A stretch of 24,583 nt of DNA, from positions 1 through 24,583 of the forward strand of contig JAUQYZ020000119.1 of NCBI GenBank assembly GCA_030587475.2, in the 5' to 3' direction. The notes under the pieces are model-generated. The model made no database searches, was not told the origin of the DNA, and was given only the letters and a program-made list of their open reading frames with translations. The translations under genes and the position numbers were made by a program. The stretch comes from Candidatus Sigynarchaeum calidifontis (GTDB lineage Archaea > Asgardarchaeota > Lokiarchaeia > Sigyniarchaeales > Sigyniarchaeaceae). Of this stretch, positions 2 to 14,736 are shown in pieces (within the stretch, counting starts at the first letter, position 1; each line of letters starts with the position of its first letter).

Positions 2-481
2 TACGCGCGCCCCGACGCGACCGACGCGGACATCGCAGAGGCGCTTCGCAGCGCACAGCTGTGGGAGCTCGTGTCCTCGCTCCCCGACGGGCTCGACACG
101 GTGGTCGGCGAGCGCGGCTACCGCATGTCGGGCGGCGAGAAGCAGCGCCTCGCGATCGCGCGCGTGCTGCTCAAGGATCCGGCGGTGCTCGTGCTCGACG
201 AGGCCACGAGCGCCCTCGACTCGTACTCGGAGATGTTACTCCAAAAGGCTATCGAGGAGATCACCAAGGATCGAACGTCCATCATAATTGCCCACCGTCT
301 TTCCACGATTCGCAATGCTGACAAGATTCTGGTCCTAGATAAAGGCGAGGCCGTCGAATACGGCACGCATAATGAGCTGCTTGCCAAAAATGGATTGTAT
401 GCCAAGTTATACAAGCTCCAATTCAAGGATCTTGAGCTTACGAGGGAAGCCGAGGCTGCCAGCTCCGCGGGAACACAGTGA
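2..481 (+). CDS. ABC transporter ATP-binding domain, C-terminal part (ABCB/MsbA-like exporter), truncated at window start
   Basis: Frame is open from base 2 ([15 protein letters not shown]...). Signature [13 protein letters not shown], Walker [12 protein letters not shown] and H-loop [10 protein letters not shown] are present. Confidence 0.93.
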
Positions 482-515
482 TACCTTTATCAACCTTCTT
501 TTCAAGTTCCATCAC

Positions 516-1475
516 ATGGCCGGGCTCGAATGGCTGGCGATTACCATCCAGATCGCCTCAGTCACCGCGTTGAATATCGGCACTATTTTCCAAAAAAGAG
601 GTGCCGATCAAGTTCCGAGCGTGCACGGCACGACCGTATTGAACAGCATTAAGAATTTTTTGAAGAACAAGACGTGGATGCTCGGGTACTTCTTCATCGT
701 GCTCGGCAGCATTGGAAGCTTCGTGGCACTTGGATTCGCTCCCTTTAGCATTCTACAACCATTCATGGCCGTCGGGATAATTGTTCAAGGCATTGCATGT
801 CGCTGGTACTTGAAGGAAACCATCAGCAAGCAGCAGATCGCTTCAATGACGATCATGGTCCTCGGTGTCACGTTCGTGGGGATCTCAACGACATCGAGGG
901 ATTTGACCTGGCCTGCATCGATCGCCATGATCTTGCGCCCTGTCCCGTTCACGCTCGTGATCGTCCTCAATGCCATTGGGATAGCCGCCTATGCCTACAC
1001 GAAATTCCGGAATTACAAGAACGCGGATATCTGGATTTGTATCTTCACCGGCATCAACTCCGTGTTCTCTTACCTGTTTGCAAAGGTCGTCATGTCGGCC
1101 GTGGTCACCTATGCCGAGGCCGGGCACGTCTTAAGCGTGTTCGGCGATTGGGTAGCGTGGCTCATCCTCGTGATCGCCTTCGTCGTCTCCACTGCGGCTT
1201 TCTTGTCCAAGAACGTTTCCTACCAGCACGGGCGCGCGGTGCTCATCAACAACATCTTCAACGCATTCAACATCGCGTTGCCCGTTCTCGTTGGCATCGT
1301 CGTCCTAGATGAATGGGCCGGTGTTCCGCTGATTAACATTGCCTTGCAATCCATCGGCGTCGTGATTATCATGTTTGGCGTTGTCTGGCTCATGTCCGTC
1401 GAGCTCAAGTTGAAAACCGGCGCCGGTGCATGCCAAGCGAGAACCGTTCAACCGGATCCCATGACCGATAAGTAG
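516..1475 (+). CDS. DMT-superfamily transporter, NIPA (Mg2+ transporter)-like
   Basis: About 9 hydrophobic segments. QKRG after TM1 and FLKNKTWMLG...GSFVALGFAPFSILQPF...YLKE match the NIPA pattern (W..G...NFxAYxFAPxxLVxPL...LxE). ATG 516 chosen because the 372 start overlaps the ABC gene. Confidence 0.75.
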   Translation: MAGLEWLAITIQIASVTALNIGTIFQKRGADQVPSVHGTTVLNSIKNFLKNKTWMLGYFFIVLGSIGSFVALGFAPFSILQPFMAVGIIVQGIACRWYLKETISKQQIASMTIMVLGVTFVGISTTSRDLTWPASIAMILRPVPFTLVIVLNAIGIAAYAYTKFRNYKNADIWICIFTGINSVFSYLFAKVVMSAVVTYAEAGHVLSVFGDWVAWLILVIAFVVSTAAFLSKNVSYQHGRAVLINNIFNAFNIALPVLVGIVVLDEWAGVPLINIALQSIGVVIIMFGVVWLMSVELKLKTGAGACQARTVQPDPMTDK

Positions 1476-1531: not shown

Positions 1532-2482
1532 ATGGTTGACCTGACCAATCTCAACGTGCAATTCGCCATATCGCTCGCGATCATTGTCGTCGGGTATCTC
1601 CTGAAGCGAACCGGGATCGTGGACAAGGATGGTGGCGGGAAGGCCCTTGCGAGGATCATCTTCAACGTGACCCTTCCCTCCGTCATTCTCCGCACCTTGA
1701 CACGGATTCAAATGGATGTCGCCATGATCACCATGCCGTTCCTCGCGTTCTTGATCACGGGGATCGTTCTTGGCGTGGCATTTGTCATTCATAAGGAGGA
1801 GCGATCGAGGAAACTGCGAGGCCAGTATATCATGATGAGCCTCGGGTATAACGTGGGCAATTTCGCATTTCCGCTCGTCCAGGGCATTTTCGGCGACGAA
1901 GGACTCAAATACGCTGCCATGTACGACGTCGGGAACGCGATGGTGATTTTCTGCTTGTGCTACATCATCGCGGTGACGTATTCCGCGAAGGAGGGGGAAC
2001 CATTTAAAGCTCGATTCATTGCCAAAAAGGTGCTCACCTCCCCGCCCCTTCTCTCCTATATCATCGGGCTCATCTTGAACTTGGTATCATTCAAGTTTCC
2101 CGACTTTCTTTCCAATATCGATGACATGGGATTGATCGACGTGATTGCCCGGGCCAATACCTTCATTACCTTTCTGGTACTCGGCATATACCTCGATTTC
2201 AATCTTGAAAAGAAGTATTGGAAGGATCTCTCGAAAATCCTCTTGACCCGCTATGGCATTGGCATCCTTCTCGGCGTCATATTCCTCTTGTTCTGGCCCG
2301 TGAGCTTGATGGCTCGTATCATCCTGCTCATTTGTTATATCTTGCCCGTTGGCATGGGATTGCTCGTGTTCGTGGTGCAGTTTGGCTATGACGAGCGGTT
2401 CGCGGGAATGCTGTCAAATATCATGAATGTCTGTTCGTTTGCGATGCTTTGGCTAGTCTTGCTTGCATTCTGGGGGCGTTGA
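1532..2482 (+). CDS. AEC (auxin efflux carrier / Mem_trans) family transporter
   Basis: IIVVGYLLKR, IIFNVTLPSVI, YNVGNFAFPLVQGIFGDEGL and SPPLLSYIIGL are typical AEC motifs; about 10 TMs. Confidence 0.88.
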   Translation: MVDLTNLNVQFAISLAIIVVGYLLKRTGIVDKDGGGKALARIIFNVTLPSVILRTLTRIQMDVAMITMPFLAFLITGIVLGVAFVIHKEERSRKLRGQYIMMSLGYNVGNFAFPLVQGIFGDEGLKYAAMYDVGNAMVIFCLCYIIAVTYSAKEGEPFKARFIAKKVLTSPPLLSYIIGLILNLVSFKFPDFLSNIDDMGLIDVIARANTFITFLVLGIYLDFNLEKKYWKDLSKILLTRYGIGILLGVIFLLFWPVSLMARIILLICYILPVGMGLLVFVVQFGYDERFAGMLSNIMNVCSFAMLWLVLLAFWGR

Positions 2483-2734
2483 TCATTGGATGCTACCTTT
2501 TGATGGTAGCAACTCACCTTAGAGCACAGAAAAAGCCAAATAAGAGGCTTTAGAAGGTAAGAAAGGATCAATTATATCGCCCCTAAAATATATGAAAAGA
2601 AAAGACATTTTCTACATATGAGCCCTGGATTCTCTTGTTTTCGGAGACAGAAGCAATTCATCGTTCCCTTCGGTTTCATAGCTACTGCATTGACAAGACA
2701 AGCAGCCCGCGTGAGAACTACCATCGTTTCCTTT

Positions 2735-3928
2735 ATGGAATTTGCACGGAAATACTGGTACGCTTTGCTCGTGAATTTCTTGATTTGCTTGATAACCACG
2801 ATCGCGACCACGGAGATTTCTTTGAAGCATCAATTCCCTTATCTCATCGATTATCCCATTTTTTATTACGTGTCGCGCATGTTCTTTAATCCATCCGAGA
2901 TCCTGTTGATTTACGACACGGCCTACATCAACGCCACGTATCACACGATGCAGTTCCGATATTTACCCTCGTTTTTGCTCGCTTGGTTCCCTTTCACGAT
3001 TCCTGATCTCATCACCTCCTATTATATCTTCAATTTTACTTGTTTTGTGCTTAACGTGGTTATAATGCAACTCGTCGTTCACATCATAGAAGTGCATCTA
3101 CATCGTCCCACCACCAAGGCTTCGAAATTGCTTCTCTTTATCTTTTCCAGCGCGCTCTTCCAGGTCGGTACTTTTCTAACAGGCCAACCGGTCATCATCG
3201 TGGCTGTTCTTGCCTTGCTGAGCTTAAAGAAGTTTCTCGAGAAGAGGGATGTAGCAGGCTCATTATTGCTCGCAATGTCGATCATTATAAAACCCGTTCT
3301 ATATTTCACGGTTTTATTCGTCTTGATGAGCCGAAAATCATCTAGATCGAAATTATTATATATGGGATCGATAGCACTTCCCTTTCTCATGGATGCGATG
3401 CTATTCTTAAATTTTCCGGACTTGCTTCGCGGTTTCCTAAATAACAATTTTTCCGGGGGGATAGAACGCGGCTTTTTCTCCACATCGGTTGCGAACTTGT
3501 TTTATTCGATATTTATGGCAGATCCTTTCCTTTCCTTCATCATCACGACTGCCGTTATGGCTTTCCTGGGCTGTGCAGTGACGGTCAAGATCCAAGATAA
3601 TACCAAGCAGATGGTATTTTGCTTTCTCTTCGGCATTATCGGATTTATGGTCGCGCAAATACAGATGTGGCCCATAACCCTACTTATTTTCTTTCCTTTT
3701 ATGCAGCTCGGGATGGTGGCTTGCGATTTCAAGCACATCTACAGGCAAACCGGCTTTTTGCACGTGTACAGCATAATCATTAATTTATGCATCGACAATT
3801 GGATATTGAACGACATCGCGGTTTGGGCGCCATACGTGATGGTCGCGAACGTGATCATCTTGTGCGTGTTGGTCGTCCAGGTAATCGACATGTTTCTTTC
3901 AACACGATGTCTTGTTTCTCAACGATAG
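2735..3928 (+). CDS. GT-C fold glycosyltransferase, family 87 (DUF2029)-like
   Basis: Polytopic membrane protein with FRYLPSFLLAWFPF, GQ...LL and AGSLLLAMSIIIKP motifs. Start taken at MEFARKY (2735); the ORF track extends to 2618. Confidence 0.75.
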   Translation: MEFARKYWYALLVNFLICLITTIATTEISLKHQFPYLIDYPIFYYVSRMFFNPSEILLIYDTAYINATYHTMQFRYLPSFLLAWFPFTIPDLITSYYIFNFTCFVLNVVIMQLVVHIIEVHLHRPTTKASKLLLFIFSSALFQVGTFLTGQPVIIVAVLALLSLKKFLEKRDVAGSLLLAMSIIIKPVLYFTVLFVLMSRKSSRSKLLYMGSIALPFLMDAMLFLNFPDLLRGFLNNNFSGGIERGFFSTSVANLFYSIFMADPFLSFIITTAVMAFLGCAVTVKIQDNTKQMVFCFLFGIIGFMVAQIQMWPITLLIFFPFMQLGMVACDFKHIYRQTGFLHVYSIIINLCIDNWILNDIAVWAPYVMVANVIILCVLVVQVIDMFLSTRCLVSQR

Positions 3929-4009
3929 ATAGGCTGCCTTGGTGTGATAGAGTTGGCAGCGTGCATGAACCAAAGTTTTTTCCGATAGAAAGCCTCGATT
4001 CATCCAAAG

Positions 4010-4999
4010 ATGTCGATTGTCATCAATGTACCCGCCAGGGCGGGGGTTTTAGGCAATCCCTCCGACGGTTTCTTCGGAAAGACACTTTCAATTCCCGTGC
4101 GAAATTTTCGAGCTCAAGTCGTGCTCTTCGAATGGGAAAAGATCGAGATCTTGCCGGGCCAGAGCGACACGGGGAATTACAACTCCATCGACGAGCTGCT
4201 CGCCGATATCCGCCTCAATGGCTTCTACGGGGGCATGCGCCTCATCAAGGCCACGATCAAGCAGTTCTTCGATTACGTGAAAGCCAATGGACTCAAGGTT
4301 CCCTCGAAAAATTTCACGCTTCGTTACACGTCGAATATTCCTCGCCAGGTTGGCCTCGCAGGCAGCTCGGCCATCATCACGGCAGCTATGAAGGCATTGT
4401 GCCAATTCTACGGGGTGGCGATGGACAAGGCGATCATGGCCAACCATGTCTTGTGGGCCGAGACCAAGGAGCTAGGCATTGCAGCCGGCTTGCAAGACCG
4501 CGTTGTTCAAGTTTTCGACGAGCCCGTGTTCATGGATTTTGACCGGGAATACATGGAAAGATATGGTTATGGAAAATACGAGCCGGTTCCGAAGGAATTG
4601 GTTCCCCAATTATACCTGGCCTACCAAGTCGACTTGACACACAAGGATGTCGTTCATAACGACGTGCGGAAGCGATGGGAATCCGGTGACAAAGACGTGA
4701 TAAATATTATGGCACAGCTGGCTAACAACGCGGTGGAAGGCTACGCAGCACTGAAGGCCAAGCAAATTGACGTGTTCAAGGCGTGCATCAATAAAAACTT
4801 CGACCTCCGCGCGAGCATCTACCCCATCGCCGAGAAGAACATGCGAATGATCAAGCTCGCGAGGGATATTGGCGCAACGTCCAAGTTTCCAGGCTCGGGC
4901 GGTGCCATCATCGGCACCTACGAGTCCGAGGCCCAGTTCAAGGAATTATTCCACGCTTTCGCTGAAATCGGTTGTAATGTCATAAAGATCGAGATATAA
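4010..4999 (+). CDS. GHMP kinase, glucuronokinase (plant GlcAK)-like
   Basis: ARAGVLGNPSD, GFYGGMRL, NFTLRYTSNIPRQVGLAGSSAII (GHMP motif 2), ELGIAAGLQDRVVQV, VHNDVRKRW, NFDLR and SKFPGSGGA are colinear with plant glucuronokinase motifs as I recall them. Confidence 0.85.
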   Translation: MSIVINVPARAGVLGNPSDGFFGKTLSIPVRNFRAQVVLFEWEKIEILPGQSDTGNYNSIDELLADIRLNGFYGGMRLIKATIKQFFDYVKANGLKVPSKNFTLRYTSNIPRQVGLAGSSAIITAAMKALCQFYGVAMDKAIMANHVLWAETKELGIAAGLQDRVVQVFDEPVFMDFDREYMERYGYGKYEPVPKELVPQLYLAYQVDLTHKDVVHNDVRKRWESGDKDVINIMAQLANNAVEGYAALKAKQIDVFKACINKNFDLRASIYPIAEKNMRMIKLARDIGATSKFPGSGGAIIGTYESEAQFKELFHAFAEIGCNVIKIEI

Positions 5000-5017
5000 A
5001 CTACGGAGAGATTTGTA

Positions 5018-6520
5018 ATGGATCAACAAAATCGCCACACGCGCGTGGTCATCCACGCGGACGAGCAGATCGCGCATATCAACCCGAACATCTACGGACA
5101 CTTTGCTGAACACCTCGGCAGTTTGATTTACGATGGTTTGTGGGTCGGCCCCGAATCGAAGATCCCGAACGATAAGGGCATCCGGCTCGACGTCGTGAAC
5201 GCCCTCAAGAAGATCAAGGTCCCGGTTGTGCGATGGCCCGGCGGTTGCTTCGCGGACGATTACCACTGGCAAGACGGGATCGGCCCGCGAGAAAAACGAC
5301 CCACGCGCATGAACCTCTGGTGGGGCGGGATCGAGACCAACGCGTTCGGCACCCACGAGTTCTTCCAGCTGTGCGAGATGCTCGGGGCCGAGCCGTACAT
5401 ATGCGGCAACGTGGGCACCGGCACCCCGCGAGAGATGCGCGAATGGCTCGAGTACATGAACGTGGAGCTCGACACGACGATAACACGAGAGCGGGCGAAG
5501 AACGGCGCGCCGGAGCCGCTAGGCGTCAGGTACTTCGGCATCGGGAACGAGAGCTGGGGTTGCGGCGGGAACATGACACCACAGTACTACGCGAACGAGT
5601 ATGCACGGTTCGCAACATTTGCGGACCGCATGTTCCTCGTGAAGATCGCATCTGGGGCAAACGCCGACGATTATGACTGGACCCGGAAGTTTTTCGAGAC
5701 GATTTCCGGGCGGGCATGCGGCTGCCGGCAGTCACGGACGGCACTCGTCAACGGCTTTGCTTTCCACTACTATTGTGGCACGTCGGGCACGGCAACCGAT
5801 TACACGGTGCTTGATTGGTACAAGCTCATAGGAAAGGCGCTGAAGATCGAGGAGATTATGAAGCGCCACAGGATGGTGATGGATGATTTCGATCCCCGGC
5901 GGCAAATCATGTTAATATGCGACGAGTGGGGCACCTGGCACCCGCAGATGTACAACGTGAGTGATCCCTCGAAGCGACTCATGCAGCAAAATACCATTCG
6001 TGATGCGGTGGTCGCTGCACTCACGCTCGACATCTTTAACCGCAACGCCGACATCATCGCCATGAGCAACATCGCCCAGATGGTAAACGTCTTGCAAGCC
6101 ATGATCTTGACGGATGGCCCGCGCATGCTTTGCACCCCCACGTACCACGTCTACGAGATGTACAAGGAGCACCAGGGCGGCGTGTCATTGCCAATCCGCA
6201 TCGACACGGGACGCATCGCGTTCGATCGCGAGTTCCCGGACATCAAGAGCGTGGCGGGGTCTGCTTCACGAAAAGGTAAAGAAGTGACGGTCAGCCTCGT
6301 GAACGTGGACGCGAAGGAACATTCAAGCGTCGGCATCGAGCTCCGCGGCACCCGCAGCGCGAGGCTCAAGCGATGGCGTGTGCTCGCCGGGAATGACATC
6401 CATGCTATGAACACGTTCGATGCTCCCGACGCCGTGCAGCCCCGCGACAATGATGTCCCTGCTGGGGTGCTCGAGCTCGACCCGGCATCCGTGAACGTGC
6501 TCACCTTCGAGATCGAATAG
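5018..6520 (+). CDS. abfA: Alpha-L-arabinofuranosidase, GH51, cytoplasmic
   Basis: IYGHFAEHLG, RWPGGCFADDYHW, GNESWGCGGNM (acid/base Glu), DEWGTW (nucleophile) and NIAQMVNVLQ; no signal peptide. Confidence 0.93.
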   Translation: MDQQNRHTRVVIHADEQIAHINPNIYGHFAEHLGSLIYDGLWVGPESKIPNDKGIRLDVVNALKKIKVPVVRWPGGCFADDYHWQDGIGPREKRPTRMNLWWGGIETNAFGTHEFFQLCEMLGAEPYICGNVGTGTPREMREWLEYMNVELDTTITRERAKNGAPEPLGVRYFGIGNESWGCGGNMTPQYYANEYARFATFADRMFLVKIASGANADDYDWTRKFFETISGRACGCRQSRTALVNGFAFHYYCGTSGTATDYTVLDWYKLIGKALKIEEIMKRHRMVMDDFDPRRQIMLICDEWGTWHPQMYNVSDPSKRLMQQNTIRDAVVAALTLDIFNRNADIIAMSNIAQMVNVLQAMILTDGPRMLCTPTYHVYEMYKEHQGGVSLPIRIDTGRIAFDREFPDIKSVAGSASRKGKEVTVSLVNVDAKEHSSVGIELRGTRSARLKRWRVLAGNDIHAMNTFDAPDAVQPRDNDVPAGVLELDPASVNVLTFEIE

Positions 6521-6543
6521 CGTTAGAAAAGGAGATAGGGAAA

Positions 6544-7950
6544 TCAAGGAGCATTGTCCGCGATGCTTCTCAATTTTTCCTGGATTTCCTTCACTTCTTT
6601 TTTACCGAGCTTGAAGACCTTGAGCAACACCATCCCTATGGCCAAAGCGATCGCGGGGAACACGGACATCAGCAACCGGACGCCAAATACTTGACTCGGG
6701 TCAATCGGGATATTCGCGGCGTCTTCCCAGCCGTTGAACGTGAACACGATGTTTATCGAGAGGATCACGAGGATAGCCGCGAGCCGGATGAAGATGGCAT
6801 GGATGCCGAAATACGACGCCTCGCGCCTGCAACCGGTCTTGATCGTGTCCATGTCCGCGATGTTGCTTATGTTGCGATCGATGAAATAAGTTGGCCCACC
6901 CAACCCGAATCCCACGAATATCATCGCGATAGCGGCGATAGCATAATCCGTGATAAATAGAAGCACGAGAAGGGAGATGGCCCACCACAGCATCGAGTAA
7001 AACATTCCATCCCTGCTCCCTACACGCGCATCGATCTTTGACCAGATAAACGCACCCGGGATCGTCATTAAGAATGCAATGAGGAGCAACAGCGTCGTCA
7101 TGAACGAATCGGGTTCGCCAAGAACTCGGGCACCGTATAGCGGCATGAGCATTGGCAGCAAAGTGAAGCAATACCACGAGGTCGTTGAAGCGCCAACAAG
7201 AAGCAAGAACTGCTTGTTGAAAAAGGAAAGCTTCAACGAGCTTAATAGCCCGGGCAGTCTTGCATCCTGTTTTGTCTCATAGAACGGCTCCGTCACGCCG
7301 AATTTCAAGTGGACGATCATCGTTACCGCAATGATGATGCCAAACACTATCCCGGTCAATTGATACTGCGATATCGTTACTGAAGCATCGCCTGTATACT
7401 TTCCAATGAACACCGATGGAAGGGCGAACGCGATGATGAGCCCGATCACCATGAACACCCGGCGCGCGACGCCGACGGCCTCCCTTGCCCGGTCGCTCGA
7501 GAACATCTCCGGGTAGAGTGACGTGTGGTTGAGCGAGTAGGCCGTGTAGAACGTGTCGAAGAGCACCATGATCGCCAGCATGTACATGGCCAAGATAATA
7601 TCATCGTCCACCGGGGGCGGCGTGAACAAGAAAAACATCACGAGGGACAACGGCACGATCATGGCTATCATCCACGGGCGACGGCGACCACCTCCAAGTT
7701 TCGAGGTTCGCGTCCTGTCCGACAGCGTGCCGAGCACGGGATCGTTGAACGCGTTGTATATCGACCAAATGATGTATACGATCGTGACGAGATTGACGTC
7801 TACCTCGAGGACAACGTAATAAAACGTGAAGATCAAGAAGGAGAAGCCCTGGTACGCGACCATGTCCGGTATCTCGCCGAGCGCAAAGGCATTTTTCAAC
7901 AATCCTGGCACGGGTGATTCCGTTGGATGTCGTTCTTTTTTTTCTGCCAT
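6544..7950 (-). CDS. MFS transporter, GPH (glycoside-pentoside-hexuronide):cation symporter family
   Basis: IYNAFNDPVLGTLSDRTRT...GRRRPW, SLYPEM, and ADMD...TGCRREASYFG; about 12 TMs. Start at MAEKKER (7950); the longer ORF overlaps the thiolase. Confidence 0.9.
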   Translation of the reverse strand: MAEKKERHPTESPVPGLLKNAFALGEIPDMVAYQGFSFLIFTFYYVVLEVDVNLVTIVYIIWSIYNAFNDPVLGTLSDRTRTSKLGGGRRRPWMIAMIVPLSLVMFFLFTPPPVDDDIILAMYMLAIMVLFDTFYTAYSLNHTSLYPEMFSSDRAREAVGVARRVFMVIGLIIAFALPSVFIGKYTGDASVTISQYQLTGIVFGIIIAVTMIVHLKFGVTEPFYETKQDARLPGLLSSLKLSFFNKQFLLLVGASTTSWYCFTLLPMLMPLYGARVLGEPDSFMTTLLLLIAFLMTIPGAFIWSKIDARVGSRDGMFYSMLWWAISLLVLLFITDYAIAAIAMIFVGFGLGGPTYFIDRNISNIADMDTIKTGCRREASYFGIHAIFIRLAAILVILSINIVFTFNGWEDAANIPIDPSQVFGVRLLMSVFPAIALAIGMVLLKVFKLGKKEVKEIQEKLRSIADNAP

Positions 7951-8028
7951 GATGTTACTTTCGGGTGAACGTGCAATTAAGGTTATGGCGGGTGACACAG
8001 AACCTTCGTTGCACGTGCAGGGCTCGGT

Positions 8029-8080: not shown

Positions 8081-9316
8081 TCACAGCAACTCGTATTCCG
8101 TGGCGATCGAGACCCCGCCACCACCGCATAGCGTTGCCAGGCCTCGCTTGACACCGCGCTTCCGCATCTCGTGTATGAGCGTGACGACGATACGTGTGCC
8201 CGTGGCACCAACCGGGTGACCAAGTCCAATGCCGGAGCCGTTGACGTTCGTGATTTCGCGCTTGAAACCGATCAAGCGCTCGCACGCGATGTATTGCGTC
8301 GCGAAGGCCTCGTTTATCTCGATAAGCCCGTAGTCGTCGAGAGTGTGTCCCGTGCGTTTGAACAAGTCATCGACCGCTGGCTTCGGGCTCTCGCCCATGT
8401 ACTCGGGCGCGCATGCTCCCATCCCTACCCCCGTGATCTTGGCAAGTGGTTTCAAGCCGAGTTCCTTGGCCTTGTCCGCGCTCATGATGATCATCGCCGC
8501 GGCTCCATCGTTAATACCCGAGGAATTTCCCGCCGTGACCGTGCCTGTTCCATCAAATAAAAATGCGGGTGGTAGCTTCGCGAGCGCCTCCATCGTGAGG
8601 CCAGGACGGAAGTGCTCGTCCTTGTCGAATACTTTTGGATCCCCTTTTTTCTGCGGGATCGTGACCGGGACAATCTCGTCCTTGAACCTGCCCTCTTTGG
8701 TGGCCCGCTCCGCGTTATTCTGGCTGCGGAGGGCGACCTCGTCTTGTTCCTGGCGGGTGATGTTGTGTTTCCGTGCTAGAAATTCCGCCGTTAACCCCAT
8801 TATGTATGGCTTGCCTCGAGCCCACTCGATGGGCCCATCCTTCGGGTACTTGACGACATGGGAACCGGCATGAAGGCCGTTGGTGAGCGCGTCGACCATG
8901 GTTTTATCGCCCAGGCGCGCCCCCCAGCGGGCATCTGGGAGGACGAACGGCACGTTGCTCATCGACTCGACGCCGCCCACGAGCACGATGTCCAAGAACC
9001 CGGCCTGGATCTGGAACATGCCACTCACGATGGCTTCCATTGCCGATATGCAAACCCGATTCAAGGTGACCGCAGGAACCGTGTTTGGAATGCCCGCGAG
9101 CAATGCAGCAACACGTGCGACGTTTAGCGCGTCCCACGGCTCGAGGCAGCACCCGAAACGAACATCGCCGAGTAATTTCGGGTCGAGATTGTTCGCGCGC
9201 TTCAAGGCCTCCTTCATGACAATTGCTCCGAGATTATATGCTTGCAAATCCTTCAGCGAGCCGCCGAACGTCCCGATGGCGGTCCTGCATGCTGAAACGA
9301 TAACGACATCCTTCAT
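8081..9316 (-). CDS. Acetyl-CoA C-acetyltransferase (thiolase)
   Basis: RTAIGTFGG, NRVCISA (catalytic Cys), GGVESMS, TAGNSSGINDGAAA, EINEAFA, GHPVGATG and LCGGGG. Start at MKDVVIV (9316). Confidence 0.95.
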   Translation of the reverse strand: MKDVVIVSACRTAIGTFGGSLKDLQAYNLGAIVMKEALKRANNLDPKLLGDVRFGCCLEPWDALNVARVAALLAGIPNTVPAVTLNRVCISAMEAIVSGMFQIQAGFLDIVLVGGVESMSNVPFVLPDARWGARLGDKTMVDALTNGLHAGSHVVKYPKDGPIEWARGKPYIMGLTAEFLARKHNITRQEQDEVALRSQNNAERATKEGRFKDEIVPVTIPQKKGDPKVFDKDEHFRPGLTMEALAKLPPAFLFDGTGTVTAGNSSGINDGAAAMIIMSADKAKELGLKPLAKITGVGMGACAPEYMGESPKPAVDDLFKRTGHTLDDYGLIEINEAFATQYIACERLIGFKREITNVNGSGIGLGHPVGATGTRIVVTLIHEMRKRGVKRGLATLCGGGGVSIATEYELL

Positions 9317-13267: not shown

Positions 13268-13693
13268 TCATCCAAAGAAAAATGTCGGCCGTAGATACGC
13301 ATCTTCCACGCCTATCTCGGCTGCCACGACCGAAACGAACAGCATCGAGATGCCTTTCAGGAGCGTGTCCTTGTGCACGTTTTCAAGACCCCGGACGCGA
13401 GTTTGTTCCAGCCCGAGACATTGCTGCCCGATCCCGATGATCCCCTCGATGCACTTGCGTTGGTTGCGCCTTTTCTTGGGTACCTTGACGGCACTGGACT
13501 GTCGCCGCGCGATGCTGTTGTTGATCCCTCGAATCGCGTGATCCTCGGCATTCTTCGGGCTTTGATACCCATTATCCGCGTTGAGATTACCAATTTGTAA
13601 TTCTGGCTTTTCGCAGCGCAGCTCGTCCACCAGCGGCACGAGCGGGATGGAATCGTGCACGTTTGCTGGATAGACCTTGATCTTCACGGGCAC
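13268..13693 (-). CDS. Transposase, C-terminal frame (second Asp and Glu); joins upstream frame by a -1 shift at an A7 run
   Basis: PANVHD, LNADNGY and RKCIEGIIG...RVRGL. Junction reads GAC AAA AAA AGG TGC CCG TGA versus -1 frame AAG GTG CCC GTG. Confidence 0.85.
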   Translation of the reverse strand: MPVKIKVYPANVHDSIPLVPLVDELRCEKPELQIGNLNADNGYQSPKNAEDHAIRGINNSIARRQSSAVKVPKKRRNQRKCIEGIIGIGQQCLGLEQTRVRGLENVHKDTLLKGISMLFVSVVAAEIGVEDAYLRPTFFFG

Positions 13694-14736
13694 CTTTTTT
13701 TGTCGTCGATCAACAATTGCACGCGGTAACCAAGGAAAACCTGCTTCTTCGTGGCACGATAACCGAGACGGGCATCCGGGTCAATGTACGAGTAGTTCGT
13801 TTGCAACGCGGCAAAGAGGCCTGGGAAAAGTAACTCGACAGACGTGTCCCTCGGTGTCGAAACACCGGCGAGGTATTTTTCCACGTGCGATCGGAATGCC
13901 TCGAATGCTGGCGATTGGATTACTGCCATGAGCTGTTTCTTGAAGCTCGACATCGTAAGTTCGGAGGGCGTCTTGATCCCGCCAGAAACTGCCTTCAAAA
14001 ACGCGGCGTGTTCTGGTTTTTCAAGATATTTGTTCACCTTGGCTTGAGACAAGAAACCGCCGAGCTCGTATAAAACCACGAGATTCAGGTTCGTGATCCG
14101 CTTCTTGATGTTCCCAACACCGCTTTTTTTGTATCCCATGGCGGCTATCACGTCGGCTGCAAGTGATTGGTAGGTGGGATCCTCGATGAGCGCACAAGCG
14201 ACTGCATCATTCAACTTGATCTCCTTGTTCGCCTTCCCAAGATTAACAAACGCATCCACGGGCGCGGAATCGATGGTCACGCTTGAGAAGTCGATCCAAC
14301 CAGCTTTAACTAGATGATCGCGCAAGGTGTTGAAGATCTCGTCTAAAAGGTCCACGGTGAGCCGTTCGCGCTTGAATAGGCTGATGGTTTGATGGTCCGG
14401 CACATCGTCAAAGCCAAGCGCTGCAGCGACGTGTGGATTGCGGCGCAATTCACGTTCCAACTCGCAGTCAGACATGTTCTTGTTCAATTTTGCATGTAAC
14501 ACGGCTTTGAACATGGCGACTGGCGGAAATGGCGGCATGCCCGGTTTGCCCGGTTTCCATTTGTATAACAGGCTGAATTTCTCCTCGAAGGGCTTTAATA
14601 TATCATCGAAGGGGATAGAAAAAAAGATCTTCGTTTCGACGCGAGCCCCGTCTTCGTCACGCACCTTGAAAATCTTATCAGCGACGAGCTGAAGATTTTG
14701 TCTCTCGAAATAGGTTGTTTCCATCTCGGTAGCCAC
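13684..14736 (-). CDS. Transposase, N-terminal frame (DUF772/InsH-N domain and first catalytic Asp)
   Basis: PPFPPVAMFKAVL...SDCELE...LGFDDVPDHQTISLFK (DUF772-like), IDSAPV, and DPDARLGY...LGYRVQLLID. GGTGA RBS 7 nt before the GTG. Confidence 0.88.
   Translation of the reverse strand: MATEMETTYFERQNLQLVADKIFKVRDEDGARVETKIFFSIPFDDILKPFEEKFSLLYKWKPGKPGMPPFPPVAMFKAVLHAKLNKNMSDCELERELRRNPHVAAALGFDDVPDHQTISLFKRERLTVDLLDEIFNTLRDHLVKAGWIDFSSVTIDSAPVDAFVNLGKANKEIKLNDAVACALIEDPTYQSLAADVIAAMGYKKSGVGNIKKRITNLNLVVLYELGGFLSQAKVNKYLEKPEHAAFLKAVSGGIKTPSELTMSSFKKQLMAVIQSPAFEAFRSHVEKYLAGVSTPRDTSVELLFPGLFAALQTNYSYIDPDARLGYRATKKQVFLGYRVQLLIDDKKRCP

Follow-up and report, generated by a model that had tools for sequence, protein, structure and literature searches.

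Gene content of the locus

The window considered here, the whole stretch of 24,583 nucleotides from Candidatus Sigynarchaeum calidifontis that was analysed (contig JAUQYZ020000119.1), encodes at positions 4010-4999 a GHMP kinase that we assign, from sequence comparisons, to the glucuronokinase family (GlcAK), and which lies immediately upstream of a gene for an alpha-L-arabinofuranosidase of glycoside hydrolase family GH51. The setting is Asgard-like, with Ras-family GTPases and a class I lysyl-tRNA synthetase (LysRS) encoded, and the features around the kinase are as follows.

372-1475, plus strand: NIPA-type magnesium transporter (Pfam Mg_trans_NIPA, 48.7 bits)
1532-2482, plus strand: membrane transporter of the auxin-efflux-carrier (AEC) family, PF03547 (Pfam Mem_trans, 78.7 bits)
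2618-3928, plus strand, co-oriented with the kinase: GT87-like polytopic membrane protein (PF09594, weak at 30.3 bits against a cut-off of 25)
3976-3981, plus strand: T6 run, 28 nt before the kinase ATG
4010-4999, plus strand: GlcAK-family GHMP kinase of 329 residues, a predicted D-glucuronate 1-kinase (Pfam GHMP_kinases_N only, 46 bits)
5005-5010, plus strand: Shine-Dalgarno-like GGAGAG inside the 18-nt kinase-GH51 spacer
5018-6520, plus strand: cytoplasmic GH51 alpha-L-arabinofuranosidase of 500 residues (Pfam Alpha-L-AF_C, 147 bits; ASD1_dom, 44 bits)
6544-7947, minus strand, convergent with GH51: GPH/MFS_2 glycoside-cation symporter of 467 residues (MFS_2, 174 bits)

A preliminary description of this locus had reported six kinase motifs, an 18-nt gap to a cytoplasmic GH51 and a convergent GPH symporter, all of which are present, with GH51 intact, the kinase stop codon TAA occupying 4997-4999 and the GH51 ATG lying at 5018. 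The co-oriented GT87 match that it placed before the kinase is likewise there, weak as it is, but a role for it in the system is not supported, the gene being absent from syntenic loci of the same genus. Both transporters score below the cut-offs of their more specific models, the AEC protein at 47.7 bits against TIGR00946 and the GPH symporter at 132 bits against TIGR00792 gph, for which the cut-off is 231. A longer, TTG-started symporter open reading frame (ORF) reaching position 8229 probably does not mark the true start, and at least ten GPH-type genes, this one among them, are found in the genome.

A glucuronokinase-family protein

Ordinary Pfam models see the generic GHMP N-terminal domain alone in the kinase, and it is direct comparison of sequences that settles its family. 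The protein carries the motifs LGNPSD (residues 14-19), GFYGGMRL (71-78), NIPRQVGLAGSSA (109-121), ELGIAAGLQDRV (154-165), HNDVRKRW (216-223) and SKFPGSGGA (291-299), and of the family signature set GNPSD, PRQxGLxGSSA, AGLQDRV, MDF and KFxGSGGA none is missing. Its top database match, at 91% identity, is named Candidatus Sigynarchaeum springense, and many of its homologues are named glucuronokinase by JGI. Identity to GlcAK1 of the plant Ziziphus jujuba is 42% over 328 residues (E 2e-81), while with the kinase domains of animal glucuronokinase/pyrophosphorylase (GKUP) the protein shares 40-45% identity across at least 95% of its length, the figure being 40% for Danio aesculapii, a congener of the zebrafish whose enzyme has been assayed. 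The lily enzyme was first cloned from two peptides (PMC2823444), and both Lilium GlcAK peptides printed in that paper align in register with the kinase, at residues 12-25 and 222-238. The alignment has 80 columns that hardly vary among 15 eukaryotic members; the kinase keeps 69 of them (86%), on a par with the mean of 69.2 kept by bacterial homologues that are linked to a nucleotidyltransferase (NTase).

Against the NCBIfam models for mevalonate kinase (MVK), HddA and GalK the kinase scores 22-46 bits, where the cut-offs are 163-600: 46 bits against 163 for MVK, 35 against 600 for HddA, and a GalK score that is also far under its cut-off. These scores, together with the direct comparisons, rule out a protein of the HddA, GalK or MVK type. 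A quick IQ-TREE analysis (LG+C20 PMSF, 71 sequences) places the query inside a clade of GlcAK homologues with support of 98, the HddA-like and a second GHMP kinase serving as outgroups on branches of 5-10 substitutions per site. An AlphaFold2 model of the protein (pLDDT 92.6) has the GHMP fold; the closest solved structures are galactokinases at the top, then mevalonate kinases and a heptokinase, at 12-19% identity, and a search of the PDB returned neither a GlcAK structure nor any closer solved relative. Within the genus, dN/dS for the kinase is 0.06-0.08.

Because of its identity to plant and animal GlcAK, the register of the lily peptides, the retention of invariant columns, the GHMP fold and the low dN/dS, the product of 4010-4999 is best described as a functional member of the glucuronokinase family (GlcAK, K16190, EC 2.7.1.43). 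The homology to glucuronokinase claimed in the preliminary description is thus upheld, with no grouping of the protein with HddA, GalK or MVK.

The nucleotidyltransferase partner in bacteria

Relatives of the kinase form more than 8000 clusters at 90% identity, and, with one genome scanned per species, at least 585 prokaryotic species proved to encode one. The neighbourhood comparison drew on the best 80 loci, comprising 2 from archaea and 78 from bacteria (Acidobacteriota, Planctomycetota, Verrucomicrobiota, Bacteroidota and others), with their neighbour genes clustered and with GH51 sought within 7 kb at the bacterial ones. Of the 78 bacterial kinase genes, 55 have as immediate neighbour, in the same orientation, a gene for a PF00483 (NTP_transferase) protein of about 295 residues. 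These partner NTases are 36-87% identical among themselves, and one representative scores above the GalU equivalog cut-off (366 versus 327 bits); a gene for an NAD-dependent sugar epimerase/dehydratase is also present at 8 of the loci. The nearest non-Asgard relatives of the kinase, at 56-58% identity, retain the NTase partner, and no NTase gene was found in the Asgard kinase loci examined.

The bacterial pair is an unfused version of the NTase-kinase fusion of animals (PMC3938481), and its GalU-like member supports a route from sugar 1-phosphate to UDP-sugar. As a theme for the family, the sugar-1-phosphate salvage put forward in the preliminary description fits with this adjacency. Separately, at the locus L115 (GCA_900174565.1, 1184-7776) an NTase and GlcAK pair adjoins a gene resembling diphthamide synthase; this neighbour suggests that the host of the intact NTase-kinase pair is archaeal or unusual.

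Distribution and origin of the Asgard kinase

Each of the four genomes in the window's GTDB family has the kinase gene; a search of 37 further genomes from the order and of 300 drawn from families elsewhere in the phylum did not find it. Many Asgard-labelled metagenome-assembled genomes (MAGs) carry homologues of 60-85% identity, the figure being 60-65% for MAGs other than these genomes. In the tree, 19 archaeal kinases are monophyletic, with three unlabelled sequences and one sequence from a Saccharibacteria-labelled MAG as their sisters (support 99), and this group joins 18 bacteria and three unlabelled sequences (support 98), with every named eukaryote placed outside. Constraining the Asgard and eukaryotic sequences to group together costs 31 log-likelihood units with an approximately unbiased test p value (p-AU) of 0.049, a borderline result for a grouping that was picked after a first FastTree had been seen.

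On these sequences, a grouping of Asgard and eukaryotic kinases is not supported; the Asgard kinases branch from within bacterial diversity, and a bacterial origin of the gene seems likely. The simplest history would be a transfer between bacteria and the Asgard lineage followed by loss of the NTase. The eukaryote-like salvage pathway envisaged in the preliminary description gives way to this picture, in which relatives are spread over several hundred prokaryotic species and the Asgard clade lies inside bacterial sequences, and no inheritance of the kinase from Asgard archaea by eukaryotes is implied; it has no bearing on eukaryote origins.

One alternative sees the kinase as a leftover from a two-gene module that was transferred, stranded with no pyrophosphorylase and now without a role in any pathway. 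The missing NTase partner would fit this, as would a distribution that is patchy within the phylum (the gene was found in four of four genomes in its own family, against 0 of 37 elsewhere in the order and 0 of the 300 sampled from other families). A relic, however, should hardly show the low dN/dS and the 86% retention of family-invariant residues described above, nor would it be expected to persist throughout the family's genomes and in numerous Asgard-labelled MAGs, and we regard this explanation as highly improbable.

The association with GH51

The GH51 gene encodes an ordinary-looking intracellular enzyme, matching PDB entry 2vrk over residues 6-495 (E 5e-140) and lacking an N-terminal hydrophobic signal. 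Its translation contains the motifs GNE and DEW, which in GH51 hold the catalytic glutamates. It is single-copy in the genome and has a dN/dS of 0.10.

Adjacency of the kinase and GH51 is confined to the window's genus (g1), in which it was found in the window and at three further loci (L003, L004 and L023). Gene order at these three runs NIPA, AEC transporter, kinase, 18-nt spacer and GH51, followed further on by GPH, thiolase, Ras and LysRS. Spacer length is kept in all four, with a Shine-Dalgarno-like GGAG or GGGG element 7-9 nt 5' of the GH51 ATG, and no T-run was found in the spacer of any of them. Because of this short spacer with its ribosome-binding-like element and no T-run, the two genes are probably co-transcribed.

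Beyond the genus the association dissolves by degrees. In a lineage whose kinase is 71% identical (L007), the transporter-kinase pair is retained and GH51 and GPH lie about 6 kb downstream with unrelated genes between, while in a 73%-identical lineage no GH51 was found within 8 kb of the kinase. GH51 was not found in the kinase neighbourhoods of L005, L009, L010, L011 and L024. In the two remaining genera of the window's GTDB family a backbone of NIPA or transporter, kinase and thiolase can be recognized, without GH51; in one sister-genus genome (G303), the GH51 orthologue and the kinase share a contig at a distance of 1.1 Mb, and among Helarchaeota-labelled relatives the neighbours of the kinase are unrelated. 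Conversely, four genomes of the order have a GH51 orthologue but no kinase, and around these orthologues there is no gene in common with the window. Among the 78 loci from bacteria, GH51 never lies within 7 kb of the kinase.

Within the Asgard family it is the AEC transporter that is the most conserved neighbour of the kinase, lying immediately 5' of it in L003, L023 and L007, persisting as a remnant in L009 and as a 43%-identical copy in L024. The NIPA gene, whose order is shared with L003, L023 and L024, belongs to the same syntenic backbone and stands outside the proposed kinase-GH51 system. Two uncharacterized genes of 407 residues, one flanking the kinase in L009 and one in L011, show no relationship to one another.

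Taken on this distribution, the kinase and GH51 would form a young, genus-level juxtaposition and no conserved kinase-hydrolase system, so that the coupling asserted in the preliminary description shrinks to a feature of one genus. The symporter accompanies GH51 in L003 and L007, and the GH51/GPH pairing is itself also shallow, because GH51 orthologues elsewhere in the order have no neighbour in common with the window. The most economical account is that a GH51/GPH cassette was inserted downstream of the kinase into a conserved backbone.

The rival to this account is that the kinase and GH51 are a functional unit, in which GPH imports arabino-oligosaccharides, GH51 frees L-arabinose (or xylose is freed from the backbone) and the kinase 1-phosphorylates the pentose, for nucleotide-sugar recycling or for a new catabolic route. 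It draws on the conservation of the spacer and its Shine-Dalgarno-like element in the four same-genus loci, on purifying selection on both genes, and on the presence of GH51 and GPH within about 6 kb of the kinase in the 71%-identical lineage. Against it stand the shallowness of the adjacency, with the two genes 1.1 Mb apart in G303 and GH51 present without the kinase in four genomes of the order, and the empty count among bacterial loci. The GlcAK-invariant residues are, moreover, retained as fully as in NTase-coupled homologues, seven FGGY kinases in the genome are on hand for conventional pentulose phosphorylation, and L-arabinopyranose has the galacto and not the gluco configuration. Plant GlcAK, finally, is reported to be specific for glucuronate (PMC2823444). 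On balance we think a kinase-GH51 unit of this kind rather unlikely.

The GT87-like gene and the upstream T-run

GT87 enzymes use polyprenyl-phosphate sugars. The GT87-like gene that separates the AEC transporter from the kinase in the window has a GC content of 0.44-0.45 between flanks of 0.52-0.58. Loci L003 and L023, of the same genus, do not have it; there, transporter stop and kinase ATG are 39-45 nt apart. The sole paralogue of the GT87-like gene in the genome, on contig C97, is 29% identical, and no repeats flanking the insertion were found. Because of its 44% GC and its absence from the same-genus loci, the gene is a recent, lineage-specific insertion, younger than the juxtaposition of the kinase with GH51 and GPH.

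A run of six to eight T residues lies 25-32 nt before the kinase ATG in four lineages (the window, L003 at 7967-7974, L023, and L007 at about 7971-7977), although the gene upstream differs between them. It may be a candidate TATA-like promoter element or the terminator of the upstream gene. Elsewhere in the window, on the minus strand, a DUF772/DDE transposase at 13268-14736 is broken into two ORFs, at 13684-14736 and 13268-13693.

Glucuronate metabolism and a proposed fate for the product

The genome assembly is 89% complete, a figure that applies to every absence reported for it here. It encodes the glucuronate isomerase UxaC (L107:4221-5666, on contig C189 of the window's genome, G000), which scores 511 bits against an equivalog cut-off of 387, and since UxaC is present, free cytoplasmic glucuronate is metabolized in the cell. 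Beside the UxaC gene lie a gene of 379 residues without a family match and an EamA-type carboxylate transporter. A UGDH/AglM-like nucleotide-sugar dehydrogenase adjoins an NTase on contig C70, UDP-glucuronate thus probably being made de novo as well, and an Arch_glmU-type NTase is encoded on C233; including those on C70 (rmlA_long-like) and C233, five generic PF00483 genes lie outside the kinase locus, the other three being on C207, C27 and C205.

In the mechanism that we favour, the kinase would act as an ATP-dependent anomeric sugar kinase, most likely converting cytoplasmic D-glucuronate to alpha-D-glucuronate 1-phosphate, a substrate inferred from its relatives. In bacteria and animals, a GalU-like UTP:sugar-1-phosphate uridylyltransferase, adjacent or fused, would then complete UDP-glucuronate. 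Because the Asgard clade has kept the kinase only, a generic archaeal NTase is proposed to uridylylate the product in this lineage. The gene itself would sit in the conserved backbone of NIPA, AEC transporter and kinase, followed by thiolase, Ras and LysRS, to which the GH51 and GPH cassette would have been joined directly downstream in the window's genus, with the GT87-like gene inserted still later. Taken whole, a glucuronate 1-kinase feeding UDP-glucuronate through a generic archaeal NTase, and only recently placed upstream of GH51 and GPH, is in our judgement a probable reading, held with some reserve.

Several observations pull the other way. A literature search found no paper assaying any bacterial or archaeal GlcAK, and because no assayed prokaryotic member was found, the substrate has to be carried over from enzymes of plants and fish that are 40-42% identical. 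No match to a USP-type pyrophosphorylase (PF01704) or to MIOX (PF05153) was found in the genome, each a weak negative since the search concerned also matched none of 14 control genomes. An orthologue of the bacterial partner NTase was not found either, the best genome match to three partner NTases being only 26-28% identical, and the lack of a match for either a USP-type enzyme or a partner orthologue counts against the proposed fate of glucuronate 1-phosphate. The dedicated UDP-sugar pyrophosphorylase for which the preliminary description had suggested a search therefore did not come to light. Nor did a source of uronate by debranching, as it had pictured: GH51 frees arabinose, and no alpha-glucuronidase of family GH67 (PF07488) or GH115 (PF15979) was matched in the genome. 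The tight 18-nt link to GH51, with its Shine-Dalgarno-like element, is also kept across the genus under purifying selection, and this conservation could mean a true functional tie.

A different anionic hexose as a possible substrate

Sulfoquinovose and glucuronate are both C6-anionic analogues of glucose. In the sister-genus genome G302 (L024:3431-10251), a tight same-strand run of genes for an FSA/transaldolase, a HIBADH-type dehydrogenase, an AEC transporter and a FucI_C-like isomerase ends in the kinase, and an orthologous block is present in the window's genome on contig C86 (L117:4492-8127, equivalent to G000:C86:6491-10126). The best NCBIfam matches of the C86 block all fall under their cut-offs: the sulfoquinovose isomerase SftI at 201 versus 700 bits, 2-hydroxy-3-oxopropionate (tartronate-semialdehyde) or sulfolactaldehyde reductase at 218 versus 341, and fructose-6-phosphate aldolase (FSA) at 188 versus 246. 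In its predicted enzymes the block resembles the sulfo-transaldolase (sulfo-TAL) pathway (PMC7491151). Equally, it could split fructuronate into fructose 6-phosphate and tartronate semialdehyde, a way of degrading uronates that would be new. A recurrent link between the kinase and the C86 block, by way of a PHP gene beside the kinase in L009, was also considered and dropped, as that gene is just 32% identical to the PHP gene of the block. The record behind G302 is the same as L026 (WJJB01000116.1), which NCBI labels Candidatus Bathyarchaeota; the genome search puts G302 in the window's GTDB family, and the NCBI label is probably wrong.

The G302 arrangement, found in one genome only, fits an anionic hexose substrate better than arabinose. 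It also offers a starting point for the view that the Asgard kinase acts on another C6-anionic hexose, such as sulfoquinovose or galacturonate, or serves catabolism and not the salvage of UDP-glucuronate. To the run of genes ending in the kinase and the SftI, reductase and FSA matches of the C86 block can be added the loss of the NTase partner and two changes in the Asgard clade: Gly171, conserved in eukaryotes and most bacteria, is replaced by Glu or Gln, and an LTHK loop is found where bacteria and eukaryotes carry Ser-rich loops. The same Gly171/LTHK signature is, however, carried by the NTase-coupled relatives P0052 and P0058, and we therefore rejected it as a marker of a substrate switch. 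With the arrangement known from a single genome, NCBIfam scores far under cut-off, and a sulfo-TAL pathway that needs no kinase (PMC7491151), a change of substrate of this sort seems quite unlikely.

In a broader version, a bacterial-type glucuronokinase has been split from its pyrophosphorylase and wired into operons for the uptake and catabolism of plant sugars, comprising AEC, GH51 and GPH in one genus and the sulfo-TAL-like block in another, where it would be a 1-kinase for L-arabinose, xylose or sulfoquinovose, or part of an undescribed sugar-1-phosphate route. We judge this unlikely.

Comparison with characterized systems

The closest biochemical reference points for the kinase, read as a glucuronate 1-kinase, come from eukaryotes. 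Plant GlcAK (Arabidopsis At3g01640; Pieslinger et al. 2010, PMC2823444) belongs to the same GHMP subfamily, has all of the signature motifs and, like the Asgard kinase, is a stand-alone protein, of about 330-360 residues. In plants MIOX supplies its substrate and the broad-specificity USP acts after it, whereas neither enzyme was found in the Asgard genome, and the Asgard kinase differs in having the clade-specific LTHK loop and in lacking Gly at position 171. The animal GKUP (zebrafish; Gangl et al. 2014, PMC3938481) pairs a kinase domain 40-45% identical to the Asgard kinase with an N-terminal NTase domain of about 260 residues, which the Asgard protein does not have and of which no orthologue was found in its genome.

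GlcAK homologues in 'a few bacteria' have been mentioned previously (PMC2823444). The module of GalU-like NTase and GlcAK in Acidobacteriota, Planctomycetota, Verrucomicrobiota and Bacteroidota is nearest in sequence, its kinases being 47-58% identical to the Asgard kinase and the Asgard clade branching within them. Here the two differ in what surrounds the gene, for the NTase that is adjacent at most of the bacterial loci is never so in the Asgard loci examined, which have instead the AEC transporter upstream and, in one genus, GH51 downstream. That GH51 finds a full-length counterpart in AbfD3 of Thermobacillus xylanilyticus (PDB 2vrk), which is likewise of the intracellular type and shares the GNE and DEW motifs, with no notable difference between the two; from its sequence, the window enzyme is an ordinary GH51 whose neighbours vary between genomes.

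Significance

The kinase is, on present sequence evidence, an archaeal and partner-less addition to the known glucuronokinase family. Prokaryotic glucuronokinase homologues are widespread, and the Asgard one is the odd case among them in being without the NTase partner of most bacterial loci examined. Knowing its substrate, together with the enzyme that uses its product, would tell whether archaea salvage uronates into surface glycans, and would also test how far an annotation of 'glucuronokinase' founded on plant and fish enzymes carries across domains.

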